From assembly GCA_044356215.1 (NCBI GenBank), contig JBIKWQ010000002.1, positions 25,824 through 89,823 on the forward strand: a stretch of DNA of 64,000 nucleotides, in the 5' to 3' direction. The translations under genes and the position numbers were made by a program. Positions 27,914-53,699 of the stretch are shown here, one piece after another. Under the pieces are notes generated by a model. That model was not told the DNA's origin and made no database searches. It saw only the letters and a list, made by a program, of their open reading frames with translations. The stretch's first letter is position 1, and each line of letters starts with the position of its first letter. This DNA is from Bdellovibrionota bacterium (GTDB lineage Bacteria; Bdellovibrionota_C; UBA2361; OMII01).

Positions 27914-30900
27914 ATGGCACCTAAGATATCTTTACCGATAACCTCGCAATTAGGGTTTTTAGCAAAGGTCCTGCGTTCCGCCCTTGGGATCCTTGTGGCG
28001 TTGATGAGTGTGATAGGAGTAGGGATGGAGGCATCCGCCACTACCCCTACTGCGAGTCCGACAGTTGGGTCGGGAAGCTCCAGAGATTGGCGAGTCTTCG
28101 TGAGTAGGACTGCCAAGCAGGGAAATTTCGGAGGCATCGCGGCAGCCGATAGCATCTGTCAACAGGAAGCGACGCAGGCAGGTCGTACAGGAACCTGGAT
28201 TTCCATTCTTTCTGATCAGAGCCAGAGCGCCAAAGACAGAATTATAGCCTTAAATGGCGGCGTCGATGTGGCGACTGAGATCCGCGATCTCTCTCCGGAG
28301 AGACGGCTCGTGGCGGTAGGAACAAGCGGAACCAAGGGTCTGTGGAGTGGTGGACTGATCAACCGAATTGAATTTCACGCTGATTCCGTGAATACCTTTA
28401 GCTCTTTGGTCTGGTCAGGAACTAATAAGGATGGTTCAAAAGATGGCCGAGAAACCGCTTGTAACAATTGGACAGCGATTAACCGCGGAGTAGAGAGCGG
28501 ACGCACAGATCGTATAGATGCCACCTGGATAGCCATATACAATGGTGAGGGATCTCCGGGAAACTCCTGTGCTAATTCCGGGCGGTTCTACTGTATCGGC
28601 AAGACAAATGACCCGATCAGCGCACCGGCGACCCCGACCTTTACCTATACACCTACGGTGCATCCGACGATCACCGCGACATCGACCTCAACTCCGACGC
28701 CGACCTTCACCGCCGTCAAGACATCAACTCCTACTTTTACGCCGACGTGGACATTCACTCCAACTAATACGGCAACCCCTACACCAGCGGCTGCTGGGCG
28801 CGTTTATTCAGGCAGCTCACTAATTATGGGGTATCTTGCTCAAGGCTCCTCTGCGCCTGTTGGAGAGTATACCAACTGTTATGCCGCAATCGGTAATTCC
28901 TTGTCTCTCGAGATCTCAAATACGGGGAGCATCTACCCTGAGCTTGATGTCAAGATCGCGAATGGTAATATCTCCATAGTTACAGATAATACCAGAAATC
29001 TCGCTGCCAACGCGGCATATGTCTGTATCAAGGGTGCTAACGGCACAGTGGTAGATGCTGATGTTAAGGCAGGCATGCAGTGGTGGGCAGGTGGAGTTCA
29101 AACAGGTTCGTTTAAGATCGCCGCTGGGCTACAGTGCGTACTAAGCGTGTCAGGTTTTGATAAGAGGCGTTCATCCTCCGGTGGTGGGATCGGAACGATG
29201 AGAGCCAGCTACGACTCAGCTAGCGGTAACGTTACTGTAACCGGCGAGTCTTATGGGTACGTTATCGGAGTTAGCTACATCTGCGTTGATCCTAAGTCGA
29301 CTAACAAGACACCAGTACACATCGGACAGTACGCGCGTGATGTTGCCGGAGCTAGCGCTTTGTTAGCAAAGGACCTGCAAGTTAGCCCTGGCATCAACTA
29401 TTTCTCAACTAACGGCTGCAGCAGTGACGCTATTGGACAGCATCAGTACAACAGAGATTCCGGAATGGCTTATAAGGGTGGAGCAACAGGTTGCGGCACT
29501 GGTGTGGCATCCTACAGCTACCTAGGAGTAGGCGGAACTATCGCAGGAACTCCAAGTTGCCGTGACGGCAAAGACAACGATGGCGACGGGCTAGTTGACT
29601 TCCCAGCCGACCCAGGTTGCTTAGACGTCAACGATGTCGACGAGTCTAACTCATTTGACCCAGGCGGAGCTCAGTGTAACGACGGGCTCGATAACGACAA
29701 CGATGGCTTAGTCGATGCCTACTCTGAATTAGCCCCAGATAACGGAGAGGTGCTGAATCTAGCTCCAACCGGTGATACCGCTCTAGAGTTCCGACGTGTC
29801 GTTGAGGCTACAGTTAAGGCCAAGAAATTCCCAGGAATGACAGCGCCGGGTAAGGTTCTAATCAACGGATCTCAAGAGGTGGAGGCTGGTATTCTGCGCT
29901 CTGTCTCCACAGGAGCCGACTTATGGGCCGATGCAGGCAGTGATAACTCTACCGACGGAATCATGACCGACTCTTTGAGTCAGGTTTGTCGGGTCCTCGG
30001 CTATAAGGATTATGTTTCGTCGACCTGCCGCGATGGCGAGCGTTCGTCTAGATATCCTAACGGTAAGTGTAACTTCCACGGTACCTCTGATAACCGTCAG
30101 TGGGCCTTTGAGAACGGCAACTTCATCGTGAAGACAGCTGATCCTAAGTACAAAAAGACGTGGGTCACCTCGATTCAGTGTAAGAACAAGCTCTCGGCTT
30201 GTAACGACGGCTGGGATAACGATGGCGATGGCAAAGTCGATTCGGCAGATGATGGTTGCGCTAACGCAAACGACAATAGTGAGGGCAAGCCAGATACCAA
30301 GTGCTCTAGCCCAACATCAACCACTGAGTTTGAGCAGTGCCGTGATGGTAAGGATAACGACGCCGATGGCTTGATCGATCAACAGGATCCGGCGTGCCGT
30401 ACGATCTTCGACAATCCGAATACTTACAATCCTAGCTTAGATAACGAGAGCGCTAACTTCGGTAAGGTAGAGCTCATCGGGCCAAATGGTACGGTGCGCG
30501 ATGGAAGACCAACTTATTCATGGAAGCCTTTAGCCGCTAGCGCGACTCGTTACCTAGTAGAGGTGTATCGTGGAGCTGAGCTGCAGTACTCATTCTACTT
30601 CGATGGTACAAGTGTAAGACCAGACCTACCGCTACAGTTCGGAGTTGAGCATAACTTCAGAGTAAGAGGGGTTGACGCTAACAACAATCCGATTAGCTTC
30701 TGGAGTGATCCAATGAAGTTTACTATCGCGCTAGCTGGTCCGGCCATGGTGCGTCCAAATGGAGCAATTAATGAGCGCAGGCCAACCTTCGAGTGGACAG
30801 CGATCCCGTTCGCTCTGCAATACGAGCTGCAGGTTTTCGATAAAGCGACAAAAACGCTGGTTCTGCAGGGCTTCTCGACAACCACCTCGCTAGTATCGAC

Positions 30901-32539
30901 TGTGGATCTGATACAGGGCAAAACCTACCAGTCGTTCGTGCGGGTTGTTAACACAAACAGATCTACTGCTGGAGACTGGAGCACGCCGCTAGATTTCTTA
31001 GTGGTTGAGCCAACGGCTACGCCGACAGCTACGGCCACAGAGACGCCTACGGCGACATTTACCGCGACCGCGACTTATACCGCCACGGCAACGCATACCG
31101 CTACAGCTACGGAAACTGCCACGGCGACCTACACCGCGACCGCAACAGTGACTCACACAGCTACGGCGACATCAACGGTAACGATAGCGCCTACTGATAC
31201 CGCCACGGCGACGCCGACGGCAAGGAGTACTAGTACGGCGACTAATACGCCAACAAACACGCCGACGGATACGCCGACGGACACGCCAACAAATACTCCG
31301 ACGAATACGCCGACGGTAACACCGACGAATACTCACACGGCGACACAAACGGCAACGTACACTGCTACAGCGACGTATACTGCTACAGCGACGTATACCG
31401 CTACAGCTACTTACACCGCTACTGCAACCGCTACGGCAACCGCGACGGAGACGGCAACCGCGACTCCGACTAACGAGCCGCCACTGTTAACTCTCGGAGT
31501 GGAGTGTGTGAGCAAAAACGTCGATGGAACGAGAACGGCATACTTCTCCTATAACAACCTTACAGGAGGGGATGTCACTGTGGCCAACAACACGGCCCTC
31601 GGAACTATCAACGAGTTCAAGGCGACTACAACGACTTCCGCTACGCCGCCTGCTACCTTCAAGTTAGGCCAGGCCAAGGGAGCGGTCGTAGTTCCATACT
31701 CCAGTGGCTCTGTGACCTGGACAGTTAAGGCTCCGAAGAGCTTGCGTTCGGAAGCTATAGCATCCGACTCAAGCCCAGAGTGTCCAGTGGTTCAACCTCT
31801 AGCCGACTGTCGCGGCTACGAGAGTGGAGTGCTCAAGGTTAAGCTTGGTTACAGTAATCCGGGCTCATTCGAGCAGAGTGTTCCTGTGGGTAAGCTAAAC
31901 AGCTTCACCTCTGGAAGCACAGATCGTGGCCAGCCCAATAGATTCTTCTCGGGATTAAACTCGTCGGTGTTCCAGATCGCTTTGTCTGATCCGAACGAGA
32001 AGGTAACATGGAGTGTAAACGGCAAATCCGTCGTTATCGATAACACCCTAAAGGTCTGCTCAGGACAGTGCGTTGACCTACCGGCCGGCACTATCAAGGG
32101 TAATCTGGATAGAATAGCTGGAGAGCTGTCGGGTGTGGTTAACCGCGCGGCGAGCCTCCTCGCGAGTGTCAAAGATAGGAACATGAATGGGCGTACATCG
32201 CCAAGAGATAGAACTGATGCGGGGCGAGCTAGAAAGAAAGCCACTTATTACGAGGGGCTTGCTAAATCGCTCACTATTCAGTTCCCAGCGGTAATCAAGA
32301 CGTGTCCAGAGGCGCCAGCATTCTGCTCGACGGTAGATCGTTTGGGAACGATAGAGACGCTCAAAGGACTCTACGCGAATCAGCGTAATACCGTGATGCG
32401 TGTGATCGCCCGTGTCCAGTTCAGATCTGGCACGACACCGACCCGCAGACAAAAGCTGATAGTACAAGCCAAGGAGCTAGAGCAGCAGGGATTAGCGGAG
32501 CTTGCTAAGTTACCGCGCTTCTCAACTGAGTGTAAGTAG
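27914..32539 (+). CDS. Large modular secreted/surface protein (DUF1554-like domain, CxDGxDNDxDG Ca-binding repeats, Fn3-like pair, Thr-rich stalks)
   Basis: [15 protein letters not shown]...FYC (DUF1554-like), four CxDGxDNDxDG repeats, RPTYSW and RPTFEW domains, TPT/TAT linkers, Cys-containing C-terminal domain. Confidence 0.85.
31010..31470 (+). repeat. Coding Thr/Ala/Pro tandem repeats, including an 18-bp unit
   Basis: ACTGCTACAGCGACGTAT twice exactly (31361-31396) plus degenerate copies encoding TATATY. Also 12-bp TNTP/TDTP units. Confidence 0.85.
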
Positions 32540-36817: not shown

Positions 36818-37345
36818 TCACCGCGCCGCAGCCGCCTTAATAGCCAGTATTAACCCCTTATCTTCGGCGCACTCTGTCCCCGTCAATACCGACTCATCCG
36901 CGTCGAAGTGGATGCGGGTGTTTAAGATCTCACTGCCGTCTCTGTCACGCCAGTTAAGCCATAAGCCAGCTTTGTGATCGTCGGCGTAGATCGGCCTAAA
37001 GATCAAAGTATGCCCATTTGGAAGTTGCAACGAGTCGCGATGTTTAATCGCTAGGGTCTCTTCCTTGCTTGAGAGTAGCTGAAAGTTGTTAAACGGTAGT
37101 TGCGACAATCGTGTTTCAAGATCTTTAATTTCGCCGACTACATTTATCTTACGACCTTCTAGAGTAGCCTCGCTGTTTTCAGTTTTATGAGGCTCGCTTG
37201 CCTGGATCGCGCGGACTGAGATCTTAATCTCTGTATCCTCAGGGTTAGGTTGATCACACTGGGCGCTATCTACAAAGAAAGCGAATTGAGACAACGCCGC
37301 GAAGATGAGATTAAAGGACGCTCTAGAGATCTGACGAAACAACAT
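36818..37345 (-). CDS. Exported hypothetical protein in ECF sigma operon
   Basis: Signal-like N-terminus and beta-rich body. Third gene of the sigma/anti-sigma unit. Confidence 0.65.
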   Translation of the reverse strand: MLFRQISRASFNLIFAALSQFAFFVDSAQCDQPNPEDTEIKISVRAIQASEPHKTENSEATLEGRKINVVGEIKDLETRLSQLPFNNFQLLSSKEETLAIKHRDSLQLPNGHTLIFRPIYADDHKAGLWLNWRDRDGSEILNTRIHFDADESVLTGTECAEDKGLILAIKAAAAR

Positions 37346-37350
37346 GACGA

Positions 37351-38124
37351 CTATTTGGCTCCAGATCTAGTAGTTCCGTCAAGTCGATTTTGTTTGGAGG
37401 TCGCCGCGCCGCGGAATCCGCCAAGTGGAGTAGGAGAGAGTAATCTGTTTGGTCCATACTGCGATGGTTGCCGCCGGATCCAAATGATTGAAGAAGATCC
37501 GTTCGGGTCTGGTATTAATCTAAGAGATCCGTTCGCACGCATCCAATCAACTTGGAGTGGGTTACGCGAGGCGCGATTCTGAGTCAGATAGTTCGGGTGC
37601 TGAGTATTTGAGTTGGCGGCGCCGACACCCGCTTGGTGAATAATTCCAGAGCCAGATACGGGGCCAGCATGAGGCGCTGAGAATTTTACGATCTCACTAG
37701 GACGTGTTGTTAAGGTAATTAATAAAGCCGCCGCGATGGCAGCGCCTGAAGCTCCACCTAGTAAAGCTTGACGGAGATCAATACGCTCAAAGAGTGATGG
37801 TTTGCTCTCTTTTAATCTGCGCTGGCCAAGATAGAGTGCCGCGCGCTCCTCCTGTTCGATCCGAGTTTCTATCTTCCCCCAGAGATCTACCTTCATTTCG
37901 TCGCGAGAGCTAAACAGCTCTCCGCAGCTACTACGTAGCTCCTCTAACTCACTTAGTAGCTCGCGGGCTGAGTGATTCTTGGCTAGTAACCTCTTGGCTA
38001 GAAAATTTGATATGTATGAGCACTCGCCATCTGAGAAGCGGGAGATAAGGAGCTGTTGACGCTCTGATAGGGGCGATTGCTGTTGTTTGTCTGTCAGGCG
38101 CGTGTCCTTCGATCGAGTGTTCAT
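37351..38124 (-). CDS. Putative transmembrane anti-sigma factor
   Basis: LISRFSDGE anti-sigma-like N-terminus, DLWGKIE, single TM. Overlaps the sigma gene stop. Confidence 0.7.
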   Translation of the reverse strand: MNTRSKDTRLTDKQQQSPLSERQQLLISRFSDGECSYISNFLAKRLLAKNHSARELLSELEELRSSCGELFSSRDEMKVDLWGKIETRIEQEERAALYLGQRRLKESKPSLFERIDLRQALLGGASGAAIAAALLITLTTRPSEIVKFSAPHAGPVSGSGIIHQAGVGAANSNTQHPNYLTQNRASRNPLQVDWMRANGSLRLIPDPNGSSSIIWIRRQPSQYGPNRLLSPTPLGGFRGAATSKQNRLDGTTRSGAK

Positions 38125-38774
38125 TTGTGAGACTCCGGAGCTAGTTCCTTAAGCGCCTGTTGAAGGGCTTTGCGGGCATAAAACAATCTGCTCATAACTG
38201 TTCCCCTTGGTACACCGAGTGCCGCCGAAATATCTTCATAATCAAGTCCATCAACTTCACGCAAGATGATTACTGCTCGATGCTCATCCGAGAGTTGGGC
38301 CAGAACCTGTTCCAGCTTTCGTCCCATCTCTTTTCTTAGCAGCGCTTCCTGCGGACCCTCGACATTCTGCGAGAGGGGCGCGCCATCAGCGGGGCCTGAA
38401 TCGGAGCCATCAGCGCTTGATCTATTACTCAAGACGCCGAAATCCTCTTTATATTCAAAATGGTGGCCGCCACGGCGTTGGTTTTTTCTCTGCAGGTCCA
38501 CCGCCATATTAAAGGTGATGCGGTGCAGCCAAGTATAGAAGGAGGACTCGTTCTTAAACTTATCTAATGATAAGAACGCTTTAACAAAGCTTTCTTGAAC
38601 GATATCTTCGGCATCCTCGGTGTTCTTAACGATATCCAGCGCCATACGCATCAGGCGCGCCTGATAGCGCTCTACGAGAGTCCTGTAAGCTCCTCGGTCC
38701 CCGTTTAGGGTAGCGTTGACCAATTCCGCGTCTTGCGGACCGCTGGGGGTATTTCTCTCCTTGGAGTTGGTCAT
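38121..38774 (-). CDS. ECF sigma factor (RpoE-like)
   Basis: DAEDIVQESFVKAF, FYTWLHRITFN, LREVDGLDYEDIS..LGVPRGTVMSRLFYAR. Confidence 0.93.
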   Translation of the reverse strand: MTNSKERNTPSGPQDAELVNATLNGDRGAYRTLVERYQARLMRMALDIVKNTEDAEDIVQESFVKAFLSLDKFKNESSFYTWLHRITFNMAVDLQRKNQRRGGHHFEYKEDFGVLSNRSSADGSDSGPADGAPLSQNVEGPQEALLRKEMGRKLEQVLAQLSDEHRAVIILREVDGLDYEDISAALGVPRGTVMSRLFYARKALQQALKELAPESHK

Positions 38775-38899
38775 AGGGGCGTTAACAGTACAGGGACGGG
38801 GCGTCTTCAAGCAACCCCTGGCAAGCAGGATAAGCGTCATTCTATTGGTCTATAGGTGGATCGCGCTAATCTTATGCTATGCAGTTCTAAGGGTTTGGA

Positions 38900-42382: not shown

Positions 42383-42688
42383 TTACGCGATGAACGGTAG
42401 GTTGATGTTGAGGCGCTCATTTAGAGCTTTGCGAAGACGGTTCTGGATATCTACTGGGAGCGGAGCCTCAGGCTCGCGGAGTTGAGCGGCGCTGGAAACT
42501 ACGTGTTTATAAGAAGCGAAGAAAGCGGCGCAATCTGGGCACTCATCTAAATGGTTCTCCATAGCGGCGCGCTTATGCTGCGGGAGTTCACGGTCTACGA
42601 AATCACCAAGGTGAGCTACGACGTTGTTGCAGTCGTGGAAGTTGAGGTAGCAGGCATCGGAGCTAACATTTAGATTCTTATCGTTCAT
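42383..42688 (-). CDS. zf-HC2 (ZAS) anti-sigma-like small protein
   Basis: C...DFVDREL...HLDECPDC (HxxxCxxC). No TM segment. Confidence 0.8.
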   Translation of the reverse strand: MNDKNLNVSSDACYLNFHDCNNVVAHLGDFVDRELPQHKRAAMENHLDECPDCAAFFASYKHVVSSAAQLREPEAPLPVDIQNRLRKALNERLNINLPFIA

Positions 42689-42957
42689 ATCGCAAATCCC
42701 CCAAATAGGTTTCAGTTGTTATAATTTTTACGGCACTCCAAGAGCTGTAACCAACTACCTGTACTTCAAACCAGCTTAATGTCCTACCAACTGATACCAC
42801 TACGGATACTGCGGAGAACTACCTAACCACTAAGTTAACCTAAGCCCTGGCATGTTATGCCAAACGTCTTTCAATCTTTGATTCCCCTAGAGGGGAAAAG
42901 GATGCAAATTTGGTACAATTTTTTCGAAAAAAAGTTACAATTGACCTAAGCTATTGA

Positions 42958-43647
42958 TTAGGCGACGAATTTATAGCCAACGCCGTGTACTGTTAAGATG
43001 TGGCGTGGCTCGTCTATGTTGGCTTCTATCTTTTGACGGAGGCGGGCGATATGGTTGTCGACCGTGCGAGTGGTTGGATATGAGTTGTAACCCCAAACCT
43101 CATCGAGTAGCTCATCGCGGGTGACCACGTTGCCCTGTTTGGATATTAGGTAACGTAATAGCCTGTATTCTCTCGCTGAGAGGTCTATTGGGTCGTCGTT
43201 TCGGTGTGCCTTGTAAGCCTTGAAATCAACTACCACATCGGCGAACTGCACCTGGTCGACGTTTGAGGTTCTCTGTACGCGCCTTAGCAGGGCCTTAACA
43301 CGGGCTATTAGTTCAAGCATCCCAAAGGGCTTGCCGAGGTAGTCGTCCGCTCCAAGGTCCAACCCGAGAACCTTATCAACCTCGCTGCTGCGAGCAGTTA
43401 GCAATATAAGAGGAGTGGATATTCCTGAGATCCTGAGTTCGCGGCACGCCTGTAACCCGTCCTTTTTGGGCATCATCACATCCATGATGATAAGGTCTGG
43501 TTTTTGTTGGTTAACTAAAGCAACCCCAGCCTCTCCATCAGAGGCTGTAATGACCTTAAAACCCTCTAATTCTAGGTTCATTACGAGGCTCTTGCGGATT
43601 AAATCCTCGTCTTCTATCACCGCTACGGTAAAACTGTCCCCGCGCAT
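42958..43647 (-). CDS. OmpR/PhoB-family response regulator (orphan)
   Basis: VIEDE, DLIIMDVMMP, LLTA, GADDYLGKPF, TRTVDNHIARLRQKIE, TVHGVGYKF. Confidence 0.95.
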   Translation of the reverse strand: MRGDSFTVAVIEDEDLIRKSLVMNLELEGFKVITASDGEAGVALVNQQKPDLIIMDVMMPKKDGLQACRELRISGISTPLILLTARSSEVDKVLGLDLGADDYLGKPFGMLELIARVKALLRRVQRTSNVDQVQFADVVVDFKAYKAHRNDDPIDLSAREYRLLRYLISKQGNVVTRDELLDEVWGYNSYPTTRTVDNHIARLRQKIEANIDEPRHILTVHGVGYKFVA

Positions 43648-43758
43648 CTCGTCCCTGAAAAGTACTGCTGAAAGTTTAACTCGACTGGGGGTGATTAGAA
43701 TCACCCCCTAGAAAATGAGTATAACCGCAAAGAAGTACTAATCATATAGGTCATCTCC

Positions 43759-47865: not shown

Positions 47866-50178
47866 TCAGTATCCCCCCCCAACCGCTAAGATCCGCAGCA
47901 ACCCCTCCAGATCCGTAAACTGCCGGGCCGAGTCAAACATTACGCTCTTATCTGTTGACGCGCCCTCTGGGCCGCACATTAAGGCGAATTGAACGCGTCT
48001 CTCACGGGCTACTAAGATCGCGTCCCTGACAAAAGTGCCACCGCCGATAAATACGATCATACCGTTACGATCCGCCACGTAATCCACTAATTGATGCGGC
48101 ACCGTAAAGAGACCTCCCTCAAGAGGGATCACATGCGTCAGCCCAGGTGTAAAAGATTGAGTTGTTTGGTCGGCCTGTACCGTTGCGCTAATCAGGGCCA
48201 GTCGATTATCCCTTAAGAATTTGGAGTTGCGCTCCTGCACCGCATGCGAGAGCGCGGTTGTGATCCCCGCATTCTTTGGGCGGCCGATCATCATATATGT
48301 TGTTTCAGGATCGATCGCCTCGACTAAACCGTTAATCAGATCTCGTATCACGCTCTGTTGCAGTCGTGATATTCGGTCCCACCACCTGGCGCCCGACGCG
48401 CCTAGAATTAAAAGCGGCCTCTTACCGCTCGTAGCCGCAGCTATGCTCTCTGATGAGTAATTAATACCCTGAGCTCTTAAGTGCTGTTCAAAGTTTCTCC
48501 GAGCTGAATCATCTCGCGCATGATCCTCTAAAACCAGCGGGGGGAGCGCGGATATTTTTGAGCCCACTAGCTCAATGAAATTAGCCTTTAATTTATTTAA
48601 CTTGCGAGCGAACCTAGCCGCCTCTCGATCTGTATGCGCCACTTCGTGCCGAACGATCGTCTCGAAATGGTGCTCTTTTAGTCCCGCGAATGAAGCTGTG
48701 TCATCGAGCTGCCAGATGTCGGTTTGAAAGAGACCTCCACCGTCCGAGCAAACCACAAAGGGGATGTCGAGATTTAAGCATTTTACCATCTCGAGCTCTT
48801 CCGCCGTGTCGATATTATTAAGAGCTAAGTTAGAGTCGGGATTAAATTCGATCATCACCAGATCGCGTTTAGCCAGATCGCTCGCTACTCTTAACGCCTC
48901 ATCGTCTAATCCGTGAGCGGCGTGTCCGATCCTGACCCGCATATTGTATTTCTGAGCTAGCAGGAGCGACTCTCTGACGTTACTAAAGTTTTTGCGATTC
49001 TCGCCCGCATGAATACGAAGAGTAAATTCAGGATCGTTGTCTGCCGCCCATGAGGCGATCTCTTTTATATGTGGTTCTAAGTCACCTATCTTGTTGTCCT
49101 CAAAACCTAGGAAATCAACACCAACAATGTAAGGGCTTGCGCCAATAATTTTAAGCTTCTCAACCTCACGGGCTAAAAGCGCGGGTGGAAGATTCCTTGG
49201 AAGACCGGCTAAAAAACGCAGCCTTACACCAGTGTCTCGCTCAATCGCTGGGAGTGACTGATGTAGCAGCTTGATGTAATCCGCTGTGAGAAGCCCCCCT
49301 GAGGTTGCTGTGATCTCGGCGTATTGAACTCCTTGATGCGCGTACTCCTCGGCATATTTTAGAAGTAGCTCATAAGCTATCTTAGGCGATTTAGTGATCG
49401 GTGTTCTAAAGCGATAAACAGAAACTTCAAGATCGCCAAAGGTTACTTGCCGATCGGGTGGGATAGACATAGCCGCAGCCAAGATCTTTCTGCTCTTAGT
49501 TGATAGACTATCGAGCGGCACAGCATCTTCCTCCTTTGGAATTCGCCCGATCTCTGGGCCGTCTGTCGGAGGATAGAAAAATCGCGGGGTTCTCTCGATA
49601 CGCGCGGTATCATAGGGGATCTTTAAAACATCTAGCAGCCGTGTTGGATAGGGAACCTTGGCGTGCAAAGCGATCGCCATTAGCCCCTTGGCTGACACCT
49701 GACCCGAGCTGTGGGTGTGGAGGTCTGTGCGCAGGACTGGCGGCTTAAGAGCCGGTCTGGGGTAGGGGAGCCATCTGTGAAGTTTCTCGTTGGCTAACAT
49801 GCGGGTCTCAAAAACCGTTAGCTTCTGAAAAACTTCACCGTATTCGACACCGCGCGCCGTGACTCGGTACTTACCAAATAGCTGGCCATCTCTATCGCGC
49901 GAGCCGCCCAAGAATATCTCTATCTCAAAGAGCGCTCCAGCGCTTGGAGGTAAGGTTAAGGAGATTGCTGGTGTCGAATCAGCTCTTCTAGAGAATTTAG
50001 CGGGGACTCCCGCTATTTTAAAATTGATAAGGGTAACCAAGTGGTGCTCTACACGGCCAGTTGTGTTTACTGGGCCGACTATACGGGCTGAAAGGTGGCG
50101 CGACCCAGGTTTATATACGAAGAGGATCTGATAATGGTACCCCCAGTCTAGGGGGTGCTGGATGGAAACTAGGGGCAT
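47866..50178 (-). CDS. Adenosine/AMP deaminase-family amidohydrolase fused to a C-terminal SLOG-like domain
   Basis: DLHTH, GVQYAEI, VGVDFLGFE, RIHAGE, RIGH, EFNPDSNLAL, CSD. C-terminal LLILGAS...IVFIGGGTF...GPEGAS pattern. Confidence 0.8.
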   Translation of the reverse strand: MPLVSIQHPLDWGYHYQILFVYKPGSRHLSARIVGPVNTTGRVEHHLVTLINFKIAGVPAKFSRRADSTPAISLTLPPSAGALFEIEIFLGGSRDRDGQLFGKYRVTARGVEYGEVFQKLTVFETRMLANEKLHRWLPYPRPALKPPVLRTDLHTHSSGQVSAKGLMAIALHAKVPYPTRLLDVLKIPYDTARIERTPRFFYPPTDGPEIGRIPKEEDAVPLDSLSTKSRKILAAAMSIPPDRQVTFGDLEVSVYRFRTPITKSPKIAYELLLKYAEEYAHQGVQYAEITATSGGLLTADYIKLLHQSLPAIERDTGVRLRFLAGLPRNLPPALLAREVEKLKIIGASPYIVGVDFLGFEDNKIGDLEPHIKEIASWAADNDPEFTLRIHAGENRKNFSNVRESLLLAQKYNMRVRIGHAAHGLDDEALRVASDLAKRDLVMIEFNPDSNLALNNIDTAEELEMVKCLNLDIPFVVCSDGGGLFQTDIWQLDDTASFAGLKEHHFETIVRHEVAHTDREAARFARKLNKLKANFIELVGSKISALPPLVLEDHARDDSARRNFEQHLRAQGINYSSESIAAATSGKRPLLILGASGARWWDRISRLQQSVIRDLINGLVEAIDPETTYMMIGRPKNAGITTALSHAVQERNSKFLRDNRLALISATVQADQTTQSFTPGLTHVIPLEGGLFTVPHQLVDYVADRNGMIVFIGGGTFVRDAILVARERRVQFALMCGPEGASTDKSVMFDSARQFTDLEGLLRILAVGGGY

Positions 50179-50183
50179 GAGTT

Positions 50184-50212
50184 AGTTTATATCGAATTCG
50201 GACGTAGTTCAA
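50184..50212 (-). promoter_or_regulatory. Putative (near-)leaderless sigma70 promoter of the deaminase gene
   Basis: Minus strand TTGAAC-N17-TAAACT-N5-ATG with no SD. Confidence 0.55.
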
Positions 50213-50276
50213 ACCGAAAAATGGATAGGCGCTTTTGTGTAGATATTCACGCGCTTAAGATTATGTTATTTAGCCG

Positions 50277-53200
50277 CTACTTAGGCAAAAGAGCATCAAA
50301 TTGCGCCTTAGTGATATCCGGAAAGGAGTCACGTCTTAGGGAGCTCAACCTAACCAGATCCTTAGTAAAAAAAACACCTCCACTGGTAAGCTGCAAGATG
50401 ACATCAGGGTCACCCGCGGCAATATTAGAGATGAAGCCTTCCGTGGAACGCAACCTAGGCATTTCAAAATTCTCAAGCCAATCGTAGATAGGCGCCGCAG
50501 TTGGGCAGTCCGAGTGCCCCAGAGTGGTCAGAACTTGCAATAATTTAGGTTTGATTTGGGACGGTTTAGACGAAAACGGTCTTCCAGAATAGAGGCCCTC
50601 ATCTTTAGCGGTCGGAAAGTAAGTTGTCGCTATCTGTTTGTACTTATCGGGAATAACGGAGATCCAGTGGTTATAAAGCTTACTCACGTATTGTTCATCT
50701 AAACCGCCTCGCTCTAACAGCGCGGACATAAGGATCTTAGCGCGAGTCGGAGTCGGAAGCTGACTCAGATTAGATCTTGTTATCTCCGATGTCTCGTAGG
50801 TCTTCATTTTTTTTGCCAGCGTTAAATTCCGCTCTGATAGGCTTTTTTTAATAATATTTAAATGACTGGGGAGTAATTCGAGTTCATTTGGCGAGTAGAG
50901 CTTAAGTTGCGAGATCGTGAATATTCCATATCTAAGCAACTTGAATACTACTTCTTTGTCCTCTACAATTTCGGATACGTAACTGTGTTCTTTTAATGAG
51001 GCAGCTTGTTCCTCAGCAGTCCAGTCACTTAACTTCCTTATGTATCCATATGCAGGATTACTGTCCTGTGAAATCAGACCAAGAGAGGAGTTCACCGTCT
51101 GCCTAATTGCTTCCTTGGTTACCTCTCTAGCCTTAGCTATTTCTTCTAAAGTTTGCCCTACTAGGAAGCGACATTCGCATATCTCCCGACGGCCGTTTGG
51201 TAAAGCTCTAAACCACTCCTTTAGTAAAACCTGCACCGTTTGGAGGTTTTTATATCGCGTATCACTATGTTGTTGAGGTACCTGATCAAGGAGCGAGTAA
51301 TCAGAATCGTTACCACGTGGCGCGTTTAAGGATATTGGCCCTTTAATGGACCGTTTCGCTCTGTATTCACGGATCAGTCGTTGTGCCGTGGTCGAGTCCT
51401 GATATGTTTTCGCCAATACGCTTTCTCGCTCCTCAGTGGTCAAGCTGCGTTGTTCTTTTTGCACTTCTCGAGCTATTGCCTCGGCGAATTGTCTCTGCCT
51501 TTTAACAGATTCTGATCCCGCTTCGTCCCGTTGTAACTTGCTTTTAATCCATTTGAACGCGTAGGTGCTAAAAGCGCCGCGAGTGCCGTCATAAAGCTCG
51601 ACGGCTCGCAAAAGTCCCTGAAATCCAGCCCCTTTTGCCTGTTTAAGCCTTTGCTTGCTGTTCTCATCAACGTTTGTGCTCATCTGACTAATAGCCTTTC
51701 CTATTAGGTTCTTGTTCTTGCGAGCGATACTTCTCCGAAGCAACTCAGAGTGTTGATACAGCCTAACGAGGTGCCTTTTAAGCGCTGATAAATCATCCTT
51801 ATCCTCCGGGATAAGATCCATCAACCGGTTATACTCGCCCTGGCGATAATCGTACGGCATGCGAAGTTTTTCGAGATACTCGCGGGTGATAGACATCTGC
51901 GCGTACAAAGCTTTAAGCGCCTCGTTTCTCTGGCCATTGGCCTCGGTTGACTCGGCCACCTTATTTATCAACAAATTAGTCTGGGATAATAACTTTTTGC
52001 AGTCGTCTTTAAGAGGGCCCCAGAGATTTGAAGCATGATTTATTGCAGTAACCTCGGTACCGTTGTTACTTACTTGATGAGGTAGAGATTTAAGGTGTTC
52101 ATAAAAGTTTTGAGATTCTGAAGTGATTAGCTTGAGCAGCTCAAGTTGCACTGGCCAGAGAGATAGTAGCGACCTCCATAGGCTGGCTTCAGCATTATAG
52201 AATCCTTCCCAAAGTTCAGGGTTTCTGAGACTCTCGATTGATTTAAAGTCAGGTTTTTTTTGAAGCAGCGCGTTGAGTGCTTTGTCTTCAGGCCACACAG
52301 GAGTAAAAGGTTTCAAGGCATCTGGAGGGGGGAGCGCAGCGCTCTCCGTTCCAAAGATCGAGAATAGCTCATTTGTAACGGGTGCTTGGGCGGTGACTAC
52401 CTCACCCTGCTCCTCTGAGTTAAACGAATTCGTAAAGTCGCGAAAAATCCATTGGACTGGTGAAGCTGGGCCCGATCCTTCTTTAGTTTCCTGAGAGTCG
52501 CAGCGGAATAGGTTGAGCTGCAGTGTCATTGGCAGGACATGTGAACTGTCGGTACCTCTGTAGCGTGCTAAATCGCATCCTCGGACTTCTTTTTGGTGGG
52601 GGATCGAGTCGTTTCGCACTTCGAACAAGCGTCCATAATACTCCAGATCCGCAAACGCTTTCAGAGTCTGCGCGTCTGATACTATTGGGGCAATAATATC
52701 TAACCTTAGTTCGCTCGTTTCTAATTTAAAGCCATGATCTAAAAGTGACTTGTTTATGGTGTTAAGAGTCTCGTTGGCCGCCGGACTGCGGCCAACGCCG
52801 AAGATATAACTCGGCAAAACCATGACACCGCCTGGTGCGATCAAGTGAGAGATAAGAGGAATATGAATCGTTGATAGATCGACGTCGTTCCAAAGACCAA
52901 TGTGAGGTAGGAGGGCTAGATGATAAACTCCTCGTCGGCCGCTGAGGTATTTGCTAGCTTCAGATAAAGAGAGATTCGCGTAATCTATTCGGGGGTCTGG
53001 TTTGTCACCGTAAATCAAGTTCACGCTGCGCGCTAGCGCTGCAAATTTCGCTGGCGCCTTGTCCAGTAAAGTGGCCGCGCGGGCATGGGCGAGCAGAGGC
53101 AAGATTGTGTCGCCCCCATTTGATTCAAAACTCAAGACCGCGGCTGCCTTTTGCTCCTTCAATAAACCTGATAGCGCGGGTCCTAGCAGGATCGATTCCA

Positions 53201-53699
53201 TTAATTGCCGAGGTAGGGATGGATCCAGTAACACCCGGTCTGTGTTGATGTCCGGACTTATGTCATCGTCTCGCAGGGAGAGGCTGTGCCTAAGTATCCG
53301 TAAGCTCTCGACAGGCTTTGATTCTATCTGCTGAAAAAACGCGTAGATAAGTGATTCGTCAAACTTAAAGTTTTGTAGGTGTGTGACCAGGTCTTGTTTA
53401 AGTGGCTCACGTAATGGGCTGCTCAAATCAGAGGTATTAAGCTGCGAGACTAAGTATGTAGGGAGAAGGTGAGCTGCTAATTCGAAAGCTCTCACCGCTC
53501 CAGTAGTGACATCTTCAAGGCGCCGCTTGTTGTTCTCAATTAGAGCTGAAAGACACTGGTGGAGATCTAATTGAATTGAAGTAGTGGCTATTCTCTGTTT
53601 ACAGAGCGAGTCCAGACCACCGCCGCATGAGGTATAAGCTACTCCGAAACTGTTAGTCTCTGTAATCAACACAGCTAATCCTGATTCCCCGGTTAGCAC
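50277..53699 (-). CDS. Giant multidomain sigma70-family-like protein (1140 aa)
   Basis: Region 2 GFQGLLRAVELYDGTRGAFSTYAFKWIK, region 3.2 PISLNAP..DYSLLD, region 4 QTLEEIAKAREVTKEAIRQ. Long unexplained N- and C-terminal regions. Confidence 0.8.
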   Translation of the reverse strand: MLTGESGLAVLITETNSFGVAYTSCGGGLDSLCKQRIATTSIQLDLHQCLSALIENNKRRLEDVTTGAVRAFELAAHLLPTYLVSQLNTSDLSSPLREPLKQDLVTHLQNFKFDESLIYAFFQQIESKPVESLRILRHSLSLRDDDISPDINTDRVLLDPSLPRQLMESILLGPALSGLLKEQKAAAVLSFESNGGDTILPLLAHARAATLLDKAPAKFAALARSVNLIYGDKPDPRIDYANLSLSEASKYLSGRRGVYHLALLPHIGLWNDVDLSTIHIPLISHLIAPGGVMVLPSYIFGVGRSPAANETLNTINKSLLDHGFKLETSELRLDIIAPIVSDAQTLKAFADLEYYGRLFEVRNDSIPHQKEVRGCDLARYRGTDSSHVLPMTLQLNLFRCDSQETKEGSGPASPVQWIFRDFTNSFNSEEQGEVVTAQAPVTNELFSIFGTESAALPPPDALKPFTPVWPEDKALNALLQKKPDFKSIESLRNPELWEGFYNAEASLWRSLLSLWPVQLELLKLITSESQNFYEHLKSLPHQVSNNGTEVTAINHASNLWGPLKDDCKKLLSQTNLLINKVAESTEANGQRNEALKALYAQMSITREYLEKLRMPYDYRQGEYNRLMDLIPEDKDDLSALKRHLVRLYQHSELLRRSIARKNKNLIGKAISQMSTNVDENSKQRLKQAKGAGFQGLLRAVELYDGTRGAFSTYAFKWIKSKLQRDEAGSESVKRQRQFAEAIAREVQKEQRSLTTEERESVLAKTYQDSTTAQRLIREYRAKRSIKGPISLNAPRGNDSDYSLLDQVPQQHSDTRYKNLQTVQVLLKEWFRALPNGRREICECRFLVGQTLEEIAKAREVTKEAIRQTVNSSLGLISQDSNPAYGYIRKLSDWTAEEQAASLKEHSYVSEIVEDKEVVFKLLRYGIFTISQLKLYSPNELELLPSHLNIIKKSLSERNLTLAKKMKTYETSEITRSNLSQLPTPTRAKILMSALLERGGLDEQYVSKLYNHWISVIPDKYKQIATTYFPTAKDEGLYSGRPFSSKPSQIKPKLLQVLTTLGHSDCPTAAPIYDWLENFEMPRLRSTEGFISNIAAGDPDVILQLTSGGVFFTKDLVRLSSLRRDSFPDITKAQFDALLPK

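Follow-up and report, generated by a model that had tools for sequence, protein, structure and literature searches.

The window analysed here, a stretch of 64,000 nucleotides, is ordinary chromosome with flagellar, MinCD, PolA and glycine-cleavage genes, and it carries on its minus strand a very long open reading frame at 50277–53699 (1140 codons from the first GTG, with the stop codon at 50277–50279). The real gene is this single open reading frame. Its start codon is likely the GTG at codon 10 (53672), giving a coding sequence at 50280–53672 and a product of 1131 aa, because AGGA lies 8 nt 5' of that GTG and because variant strains (n=2) show, within codons 1–9 of the long frame, a stop at codon 6 and a GTG to GTA change at codon 1. 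The length of 1131 aa is also found in public gene calls from two sources, and one gene caller takes M167 as the start, which gives 974 aa. All 37 windows of the frame, those over codons 1–166 included, give a positive in-frame coding signal. Neither a signal peptide nor a membrane segment was found in the protein (maximum 19-residue hydropathy 1.56, with 0 windows above 1.6, compared with 78 such windows in a neighbouring membrane protein on the same measure), and the 1131-aa product is most likely a soluble cytoplasmic member of the sigma-70 family, as judged from its sequence.

The neighbouring proteins are an ADA-like protein, a membrane protein and a GDSL-like protein. A search of 24 further genomes of the genus found the downstream adenosine-deaminase-like gene in 16; a link to it was rejected, since there it adjoins unrelated housekeeping genes. 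No conserved gene partner was found, no flanking repeats of at least 14 bp surround the gene, and among the families that Pfam scans assigned to the open reading frames of the window none is of phage or mobile-element type. Across the genus, gene order is too scrambled for the borders of an insertion to be set.

The stretch at aa ~590–880 (51060–51932, minus strand) is a true sigma-70 module, though a very divergent one, and comprises regions 2, 3.2 and 4, as profiles and matches to the sequences of solved structures show. Region 2 corresponds to aa ~641–727 (51519–51779), regions 3 and 3.2 to aa ~728–812 (51264–51518) and region 4 to aa ~813–878 (51066–51263), all on the minus strand. The sigma motifs pointed out in the preliminary description are present and colinear at the places it gave: GFQGLLRAVELYDGTRGAFSTYAFKWIK at aa 692–719 (~51546–51632), the region 3.2 motif PISLNAPRGNDSDYSLLD at aa 788–805, and the region 4 segment at aa 830–868 (~51096–51212). 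Their likeness to sigma factors goes beyond chance in four comparisons, namely the NCBIfam model RpoD_Cterm (E 2.5e-16 over aa 692–873, 60 bits), the superfamily model TIGR02937 (44.1 bits against a cut-off of 42.9, in region 2), PHROG 351 "RNA polymerase sigma factor" (E 1.4e-23 over aa 590–928) and the sequences of solved RpoD/SigA structures (26 matched, best E 6e-9 over aa 690–882); sigma HMM matches thus exist. The Pfam scan proposed earlier was confirmatory only in part: Sigma70_r2 and Sigma70_r4 matched the protein below their own cut-offs (21.3 bits against 24 in hmmscan, and 20.5 bits, E 3.4e-4, against 24.1, respectively), and region 3 was not detected, nor did the models of regions 1.1 and 1.2 match the protein. 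In a six-frame search of the genome Sigma70_r2 scored 25.2 bits against the same cut-off of 24, and the recognition of region 2 by family profiles may be called borderline but consistent across libraries. Region 4 falls within the full-length alignments to RpoD_Cterm and to the solved RpoD/SigA chains. The protein is also, as first remarked, far larger than ordinary sigmas of groups 1–3.

The residues of the core were compared with a sigma consensus of 64 columns, those conserved in 70% or more of a set of 149 sigmas (the sigma matches among the best 150 of 1377 phmmer hits). The protein keeps 36 of the 64 columns and differs in 28. The kept positions include, in region 2, G692, G695, L696, A699, E701, D704, F710–A714, W717 and R724, and, in regions 3.2 and 4, S790, L791, P794, G796, L833, R844, T850–E853, T861, E863, R866 and Q867; the importance of such residues lies solely in touching RNA polymerase or promoter DNA. 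The D-L-x-Q-E of region 2.2, with which sigma factors chiefly touch the beta' clamp helices, is lost: Q687, A688, G690 and A691 replace the D, L, Q and E found in 76–94% of the set, and the G692 that follows is retained. W716, Q720 (W716K, Q720S) and the I-R-x-P-x-H motif of region 3.0 are lost as well. The KW in place of the WW dyad, already noticed in the preliminary description, is borne out, with K716 where 75% of the 149 sigmas have W, and W717 kept. The motifs of regions 3.2 and 4.2 and the FSTYA-x-W melting block are retained.

These losses (D-L-x-Q-E, W716, Q720 and I-R-x-P-x-H) favour an alternative in which the protein derives from a sigma factor and no longer initiates transcription, acting as a DNA-binding regulator through the helix-turn-helix of region 4 and the C-terminus, or as a sigma decoy or mimic that sits on RNA polymerase or promoters to no productive effect. 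We consider this rather unlikely; it is opposed by the retention of the region 3.2 linker motif and of the FSTYA-x-W block, which make sense mainly inside the holoenzyme. In its favour, no end branch of the sigma tree is longer than the one that carries the module. In the careful tree the module sits in the non-ECF part on an end branch with a length of 2.83 changes per column (median 0.59), and in the quick tree it is split from the ECF sigmas of the same genome by starred branches (99* on each side). All 61 of the nearest sigma hits examined match models of RpoD/RpoS type at 1e-20 or better, and the core stands nearest to the RpoD/RpoS type, not among the ECF sigmas.

The likeness to group 1/2 sigmas (RpoD, RpoS, SigA), which provide the best family and structure matches of the protein, consists in the colinear regions 2.1–2.4, 3.2 and 4.2, and in the -35-reading residues E863, R866 and Q867. 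The protein differs from them in the absence of D-L-x-Q-E, W716 and region 3.0 and in the addition of orphan extensions of ~580 aa and ~260 aa; its scores stay far from those of the RpoD and RpoS equivalogs (RpoD_Cterm 60 against 354 bits, RpoS 47 against 394, cyanobacterial RpoD 50.4 against 384.5), and the RpoD-like sigmas of its own genome share only 27% identity with it. From group 4 (ECF) it differs in having region 3/3.2, with the motif at aa 788–805, and in lying outside the ECF clade. A stand-alone sigma of 280 aa from the representative library (P0044) is the sister of the core in the careful tree, with support of 99/96, and matches it by BLASTP at E 7e-16 (24% identity over aa 646–879, with A691 and S720 in common). 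It differs in lacking the extensions. Of the 33 departures of the giant protein from the consensus it has only 4, a number not above that of other hits, and long branches or odd composition in both rows may have produced the pairing artificially.

Fused regulatory extensions are known in at least 26 ECF groups (PMC8999054), with examples such as ECF41 with SnoaL, ECF238 CorE and ECF42 with TPR. As described there, these extended ECF sigmas resemble the present protein in joining a sigma module to a built-in extra domain, with no evident separate anti-sigma partner (PMC8999054). The likeness lies in the way of working and not in membership, and the extensions of the present protein are far longer, two-sided and outside known domain families.

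MzaA, from the MZA anti-phage system, likewise combines large size, a sigma-70 module and long stretches outside it; its NCBIfam model NF041931 (E 7.9e-12) and its PADLOC model (E 2e-4, 17.7 bits) match the present protein weakly. These matches invite a reading of the protein as a component of biological conflict, that is, an anti-phage sigma like MzaA or a factor directed against a foreign polymerase, and its N-terminal two thirds would then be diversifying. The matches differ from true membership in being confined to the shared sigma part (aa 692–871), with 44.8 bits against a cut-off of 800 for NF041931 (aa 692–870), and a PADLOC scan of three neighbours, the ADA-like, the membrane and the GDSL-like protein, matched no model. 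Membership in the MzaA family was rejected on these grounds: no full-length match and no PADLOC model in the scanned neighbours. The literature search found no relevant paper on sigma proteins of MzaA type. That the host genus belongs to Bdellovibrionota, a predatory phylum, is in keeping with a role in conflict; against it stand the ordinary chromosomal window, the absence of a signal peptide and of flanking repeats, and the phage records, in which the relatives amount to three generic sigma hits only. We consider such a role quite unlikely.

The sigma module takes up approximately the middle quarter of the protein. Ahead of it, the segment at aa 10–166 (53202–53672, minus strand) is an orphan with no family match in Pfam and is the most variable part between strains. 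It is followed by a second orphan segment at aa 167–400 (52500–53201, minus strand), with no Pfam or PDB match, and by an acidic, Pro-, Ser- and Glu-rich stretch at aa 401–487 (52239–52499, minus strand; net charge -8 over aa 401–480), which probably serves as a flexible linker; aa 361–487 has no secondary structure in a low-confidence model. The same kind of model predicts a helical region at aa 488–589 (51933–52238, minus strand), with helices at 494–537 and 549–581, and a few sigma hits align from aa 568–593 onward. The single-sequence models obtained with AlphaFold2 are unusable (mean pLDDT 33.9 for aa 150–420 and 34.8 for the whole protein).

The segment at aa 167–400 had been read as resembling a degenerate class I SAM-methyltransferase, and this reading was not confirmed: no profile supports it, whether from Pfam, from PF13649 and PF08241 or through hhalign. 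Pfam searches with pieces of the protein gave no methyltransferase or other N-terminal match even at E≤10, and a scan of the whole genome with PF13649 and PF08241 at the same limit of E≤10 marked 42 and 37 places, respectively, none of them in the frame. The alignment by hhalign to a profile of the 22 class I methyltransferases of the genome covered 19 columns, at LISHLIAPGGVMVL, with P 0.016 and a probability of 2.8% (best of 8 shuffles 0.089), and only the "L-x-P-G-G" stretch was aligned. Methyltransferase leads from a protein-atlas feature search were sub-threshold only (0.80–0.81). At the profile level the fold is thus unsupported, with no family profile matching the N-terminus.

Behind the module, the C-terminal extension (aa 881–1140, 50280–51059, minus strand) is an orphan with no amino-acid change between strains and the lowest G+C in the gene (0.438). 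A search of aa 876–1140 against shorter proteins returned only its own fragments among 929 candidates. The C-terminal domain of T4 MotA gave one weak signal twice, with E-values of 0.07 (PDB) and 0.27 (Pfam), and with these values only the lead was not borne out. A weak lead at 0.75–0.77 to "RNA polymerase alpha CTD" clusters was dropped, as a genome-wide search with the profile of that domain at E≤10 misses the frame. An internal similarity between aa 906–975 and aa 1061–1140 is weak (z 3.0).

No relatives of the flanks came to light in the collections searched. A phmmer search against 1.84 billion representative proteins gave 1377 hits at E≤1e-3, and the best 150 of them comprise one fragment of the protein itself and 149 matches to the sigma core, all within aa 568–962, so that no relative of the flanks outside the core appears among these best 150. 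Two hits with a central sigma module (1029 and 1070 aa) have nothing in common with it outside the core. A word-indexed search with the whole protein found only itself among 7999 candidates scored, aa 1–640 found nothing among 8000 candidates of shorter proteins, and the metagenome and genome contig collections gave 0 confirmed relatives. In the 124 genomes of the class the N-terminus was found in its own genome only; in the 124 genomes of the phylum the sigma core met generic sigmas only, at 42.6 bits or less, the best being an ordinary sigma of ~300 aa. An orthologue is absent from the 34 other genomes of the genus and from the 124 of the phylum; the function cannot be old or general. The host is an uncultured lake bacterium of the Bdellovibrionota, and the gene is known from one species.

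Within that species the gene is maintained, as indicated by its intactness in lake metagenomes, a variant, its presence in many sequencing runs and the coding signal over its full length. The variant is a second full-length form of 1131 aa with 97.5% identity, and neither an insertion nor a deletion interrupts the frame in any strain sampled, those in the independent lake metagenomes included. The concern that the frame could be an assembly chimera is answered by these lake metagenomes and by the full-length variant, which bridge all domain borders; as for a split version in relatives, no relative was found in which splitting could show. Sequencing runs dated 2018 to 2025 contain the gene: it is present in 24 of them, drawn from 23 studies, and 11 of these show half or more of the words sampled. 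A contig of 175 nt at 53370–53544 in one RNA library is a weak sign of transcription and may be DNA carry-over.

Between strains, selection is sharply uneven along the protein. Over aa 10–797, 24 nonsynonymous stand against 3 synonymous changed codons (omega ~2.4), a value that rejects 0.3 (p 2e-5) and is not different from neutrality (p 0.095); none of the 27 amino-acid changes falls in aa 798–1140 (P 5.8e-5 if evenly spread), where synonymous change is present. In the variant of run X5, aa 798–1140 has dN 0 and dS 0.0043 and aa 10–797 has dN 0.013 (Fisher p 2e-4); in its segment aa 10–166, 9 nonsynonymous stand against 1 synonymous changed codons. This segment contains a patch of 8 SNPs at 53407–53427, with 5 changed codons at aa 91–98. 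Six changes lie within the core: R642K, H650N, R656I, K689R, Q694R and N797D. Region 4 and the C-terminal extension are under purifying selection.

These data bear on each of the alternatives. Strong selection on region 4 and the C-terminus only, with changes gathering in regions 2 and 3, adds to the case for a sigma-derived protein that no longer initiates. The rapid change of the N-terminal two thirds, including the 5 codons at aa 91–98, would suit a part in conflict, against which it weighs that omega above 1 is not significant. A special form of the latter has the degenerate core of a fast-evolving sigma mimic engage RNA polymerase, its own under phage attack or a foreign one, non-productively or so as to re-aim it, with the N-terminal two thirds as a diversifying recognition surface and the invariant region 4 and C-terminus as the working end; this is very improbable. 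The lost D-L-x-Q-E and an omega of ~1 or more in the N-terminal two thirds bear on the idea of a mimic without deciding it. A further alternative is a young, chimeric and species-specific gene that is only loosely constrained, has hardly any function today or none, and is heading for loss. An omega of ~1 or more over aa 10–797 agrees with this, as do the flanking 75% of the protein without relatives in the searches made, the absence from the 34 other genomes of the genus, the lack of a conserved gene partner and a G+C of 0.469, at the 5.8th percentile among the long open reading frames of the genome. The 1131-codon frame without insertions or deletions in all sampled strains, the normal coding signal over its full length, the ordinary codon use (24th percentile), the last 343 residues unchanged despite synonymous change and the presence in runs from 2018 to 2025 argue the other way, and a gene on its way out seems doubtful.

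The reading that we prefer, at a probability of roughly 45%, is that of a species-restricted, maintained alternative sigma factor (sigma2-sigma3-sigma4) with built-in orphan extensions. It would follow from the colinear sigma regions, the kept contact residues, the maintenance of the gene, the purifying selection and the soluble nature of the protein, and from the fact that fused regulatory extensions are a known design of sigma factors (PMC8999054). Several observations count against a working sigma: the lost D-L-x-Q-E, the 28 of 64 differing columns, the Pfam scores below cut-off and the long branch; the omega of ~2.4 over aa 10–797, the six changes in the core and the missing orthologues; and an expression trace limited to the 175-nt contig of one RNA library.

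As such a sigma factor, the protein would dock on core RNA polymerase with three elements: the second half of region 2.2, which is kept as G-L-x-x-A-V-E-x-Y-D, the linker of region 3.2, with the motif P-I-S-L-x-x-P-x-G-x-D, and region 4. Its nearly canonical region 4.2 helix (T-K-E-x-I-R-Q) would read a -35-like element. Its promoter specificity would differ from that of the housekeeping sigma, because the determinants of -10 recognition and melting are altered (W716K, Q720S, region 3.0 lost). The extensions might act as region 1.1 or the fused ECF extensions do elsewhere, with the N-terminal part gating activity and the conserved C-terminal part adding a contact to DNA or protein. The data directly show the gene itself, its sigma homology and residue pattern, its want of relatives and the uneven selection along it; that the protein binds polymerase and reads promoters, and what the two extensions do, we infer from these features.

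The value of the case is limited by its occurrence in one uncultured species and by the relative-less 75% of the protein, which blocks structure prediction. On the comparisons made, the protein is an unusual, one-species form of the known sigma-70 kind, with flanks that resemble nothing known. It shows the capture of a sigma module into a new species-specific gene, with sharply uneven selection. Furthermore, if it is a working sigma, it would be a non-ECF sigma-70 factor with very large, two-sided extensions, and the idea of a "one-component sigma" would reach beyond the ECF group.

The giant ORF (window positions 50277-53699, minus strand) is a single open frame of 1140 codons, numbered here from its first GTG, in which a central sigma core (aa 590-880) lies between an N-terminal part (aa 1-589) and a C-terminal tail (aa 881-1140). 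A codon model trained on the long ORFs of the same genome (n=1324) favoured the annotated frame in every 60-codon window across the ORF (37 of 37), with a mean score of 9.1 vs 11.5 ± 4.7 for true genes; the ORF is coding-like over its full length. Codon use is ordinary and the G+C content is 0.469 (5.8th percentile among long ORFs), that of the tail being 0.438 (0.4th percentile). The true start is probably the GTG of codon 10, at 53672, with an AGGA 8 nt upstream; in two other strains codon 6 is a stop and codon 1 is GTA, gene calls from two public sources give a product of 1131 aa, and one gene caller places the start at M167 (974 aa). By a hydropathy scan, the product has neither a membrane segment nor a signal-peptide-like start (19-residue maximum of 1.56 and no window above 1.6, vs 78 such windows in the neighbouring membrane protein).

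The same stretch was found in 24 public sequencing runs from 23 studies (2018-2025), nearly all lake or freshwater metagenomes, two of which may be the source of the window DNA itself; in 11 of the 24, half or more of the sampled words are present. In three other runs, contigs cover the whole gene at 95-100% likeness, without insertion or deletion. Among the runs whose contigs carry the gene, the border between N-terminus and sigma core is spanned in X3 (record 3, 51471-52777) and X5 (record 12, 51522-52706), and that between sigma core and C-terminus in X3 (record 2, 50000-51209), X5 (record 10) and X7 (record 17). Moreover, P0157, a full-length variant of 1131 aa from an independent assembly, is 97.5% identical. 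With both domain borders spanned in X3 and X5 and a full-length variant at hand, the assembly chimera that the preliminary description had allowed for is discarded, and the giant ORF is not an artefact.

The sigma core, as judged from its profile matches, is genuine but degenerate. RpoD_Cterm (NCBIfam) matches aa 692-873 (E 2.5e-16), PHROG 351 'RNA polymerase sigma factor' matches aa 590-928 (E 1.4e-23), and the core also matches 26 distinct RpoD/SigA sequences of solved structure (best E 6e-9, aa 690-882), in agreement with the sigma-70 core proposed in the preliminary description. The profile scan that it had suggested gave 44.1 bits for the superfamily model TIGR02937, above the cut-off of 42.9, together with sub-threshold Pfam scores for Sigma70_r2 (21.3 bits vs 24) and Sigma70_r4 (20.5 vs 24.1) and no Pfam match to Sigma70_r3. 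Of the 12 Sigma70_r2 matches in the genome translated in six frames, the giant ORF ranks 10th, with 25.2 bits.

The residue pattern was compared with 149 sigma matches, over the 64 columns with a conservation of 70% or more among them; the protein retains 36 of these columns. Retained are the second half of region 2.2 (G692, G695, L696, A699, E701, D704), the melting block F-S-T-Y-A-x-x-W (710-717) with R724, the region 3.2 linker motif (S790, L791, P794, G796) and most of region 4.2 (T850-E853, T861, E863, R866, Q867). The D-L-x-Q-E of region 2.2, which is the chief contact with the beta' clamp helices, is gone, with Q687, A688, G690 and A691 in its place. The first W of the WW dyad is replaced by K716, just as had been noticed earlier, and the Q720 position is occupied by S; the I-R-x-P-x-H motif of region 3.0 is lost (K733, R736, F738) apart from R734, as are the R-E of region 4.1 and R864. 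It is on these losses, and on the retained melting block and linker motif, that a sigma-derived regulator or decoy which has given up initiation has to be judged, and we hold it to be unlikely.

All 61 of the nearest sigma matches aligned fit RpoD/RpoS-type models at E of 1e-20 or lower. In a careful maximum-likelihood tree of 71 rows (those 61 matches, nine sigmas of the same genome and the sigma core), the core falls outside the ECF clade, the bootstrap being not settled and the supports rough, and it forms the longest end branch, with 2.83 vs a median of 0.59 changes per column. Its sister is P0044, a stand-alone sigma of 280 aa from the representative library (support 99/96, rough; 24% identity). 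P0044 and the protein have in common 4 of 33 departures from the consensus, not more than other matches do, and the pairing is not trusted. The RpoD-like sigmas of the same genome are only 27% identical to the core, which is not a recent duplicate.

No relative was found for aa 1-589 nor for aa 881-1140 in any of the following searches. A word-indexed search of 5.8 billion proteins returned only the protein itself (7999 candidates scored); for aa 1-640, none of the 8000 shorter candidates matched, and for aa 876-1140 the 929 candidates gave only its own fragments. Searching 1.84 billion representatives, phmmer gave 1377 matches at E<=1e-3, the best 150 of which comprise one own fragment and 149 matches confined to aa 568-962. 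Two central-sigma proteins of 1029 and 1070 aa among the matches are 46% identical to each other and have nothing in common with the giant ORF product beyond the core. Scans of metagenome and genome contigs yielded no confirmed relative, the other 123 genomes of the class no match to the N-terminus, the 124 genomes of the phylum only ordinary sigmas for the core (at most 42.6 bits), and 40 relatives only parts of RpoD-like sigmas for the whole protein.

The N-terminus had been described as methyltransferase-like, and by eye aa 185-295 can be lined up with class I motifs, but no profile agrees. Four pieces of the protein gave no Pfam match at E<=10, the PDB sequences none for the N-terminus, and the 42 and 37 places found genome-wide at E<=10 by Methyltransf_25 and Methyltransf_11 all lie outside the giant ORF. 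Against a profile of 22 methyltransferases of the same genome, the hhalign alignment is limited to 19 columns around L-I-S-H-L-I-A-P-G-G-V-M-V-L (probability 2.8%, P 0.016 vs 0.089 for the best of eight shuffles). Methyltransferase clusters came up at 0.80-0.81 in a feature search of the protein atlas, a level that by the search's own calibration shuffled proteins attain one third of the time, and AlphaFold2 single-sequence models were unusable (mean pLDDT 34.8 for the whole protein, 33.9 for aa 150-420). The preliminary description is borne out in part, both as observation and as interpretation; its sigma core stands and its methyltransferase-like N-terminus finds no support in any profile. 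For the C-terminus, the T4 MotA C-terminal domain (E 0.07 in PDB and 0.27 in Pfam, a single signal twice), atlas clusters labelled 'RNA polymerase alpha CTD-containing' or Sigma70_r4 + RNA_pol_A_CTD (0.75-0.77) and a weak internal similarity of aa 906-975 to aa 1061-1140 (z 3.0) are only leads; the alpha-CTD profile has no match in the giant ORF at E<=10.

Strain differences are distributed unevenly. All 27 residue differences of P0157 lie between aa 40 and aa 797, and aa 798-1140 have none (P 5.8e-5 under an even spread). In X5, the changed codons of aa 10-797 are 24 nonsynonymous vs 3 synonymous (omega ~2.4) and those of aa 798-1140 are 0 and 1 (dN difference, Fisher p 2e-4), counting the differences listed and leaving aside two further ones; for aa 10-797, omega 0.3 is rejected (p 2e-5) and neutrality is not (p 0.095). 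The flanking genes have few differences (3 synonymous, 2 nonsynonymous). Since amino-acid changes are confined to aa 10-797, sigma4 and the tail are constrained, and the N-terminal two thirds, sigma2 and sigma3 included, are either relaxed or diversifying. Eight single-base differences between X5 and the window crowd into 21 bp at 53407-53427 (aa 91-98), far denser than in the rest of the gene; recombination of a tract, or else a hypervariable patch, could account for them. A young, functionless gene adrift, to be weighed between the neutrality allowed for aa 10-797 and the constraint on sigma4 and tail, seems to us improbable.

In gene content the window is ordinary chromosome, with genes for flagella, MinCD, PolA, L21, Obg and glycine cleavage. 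Upstream of the giant ORF lie a GDSL-like esterase, a hexapeptide transferase and a GT2 glycosyltransferase, and downstream a 770-aa adenosine-deaminase-domain protein (47866-50178, minus strand) and a multi-pass membrane protein of 695 aa. The deaminase domain covers aa 254-511 (E 6e-20); about 150 aa at the N-terminus and about 250 aa at the C-terminus are unassigned, the latter with a glycine-rich end, F-I-G-G-G-T. Of the 24 other genomes of the genus that were searched, 16 have this gene (~70-75% identity), and the protein also occurs in two MAGs labelled Alphaproteobacteria (55-56%). Elsewhere in the genus it adjoins unrelated housekeeping genes that vary by genome, and therefore no functional link to the giant ORF is seen. 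No PADLOC model matches any of the three neighbouring proteins scanned, no repeats flank the giant ORF, and synteny across the genus is too broken up for an insertion to be delimited; a part in a conflict system, for which the possibly diversifying N-terminal part might speak, is very improbable. Orthologues of the flanking genes in the other species of the genus (L021-L024, L035-L038) lie in entirely different neighbourhoods; at 64-75% protein identity, no gene order at all is conserved around them. Elsewhere in the window, a second giant ORF (27914-32539, plus strand, 1541 aa) is without a Pfam family at E<=1e-5, its sole match being a weak one to PHROG 15511, of unknown function (E 6.7e-10, aa 1105-1326). 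Within 36818-38840 (minus strand), two ORFs to which Pfam assigns no family come after an ordinary ECF sigma (38121-38840), and separately a zf-HC2 anti-sigma-like ORF (42383-42688) stands beside an OmpR-type response regulator (together 42383-43704, minus strand).

According to PMC8999054, at least 26 ECF groups have fused extensions; the giant ORF product is analogous to these sigmas in design and is not a member. Binding to RNA polymerase, putative here, is the hinge of every reading, the rivals included. The best-supported one, to which we give a probability of about 0.45, is that the product is a lineage-specific alternative sigma, whose N- and C-terminal extensions would have regulatory and accessory binding roles.
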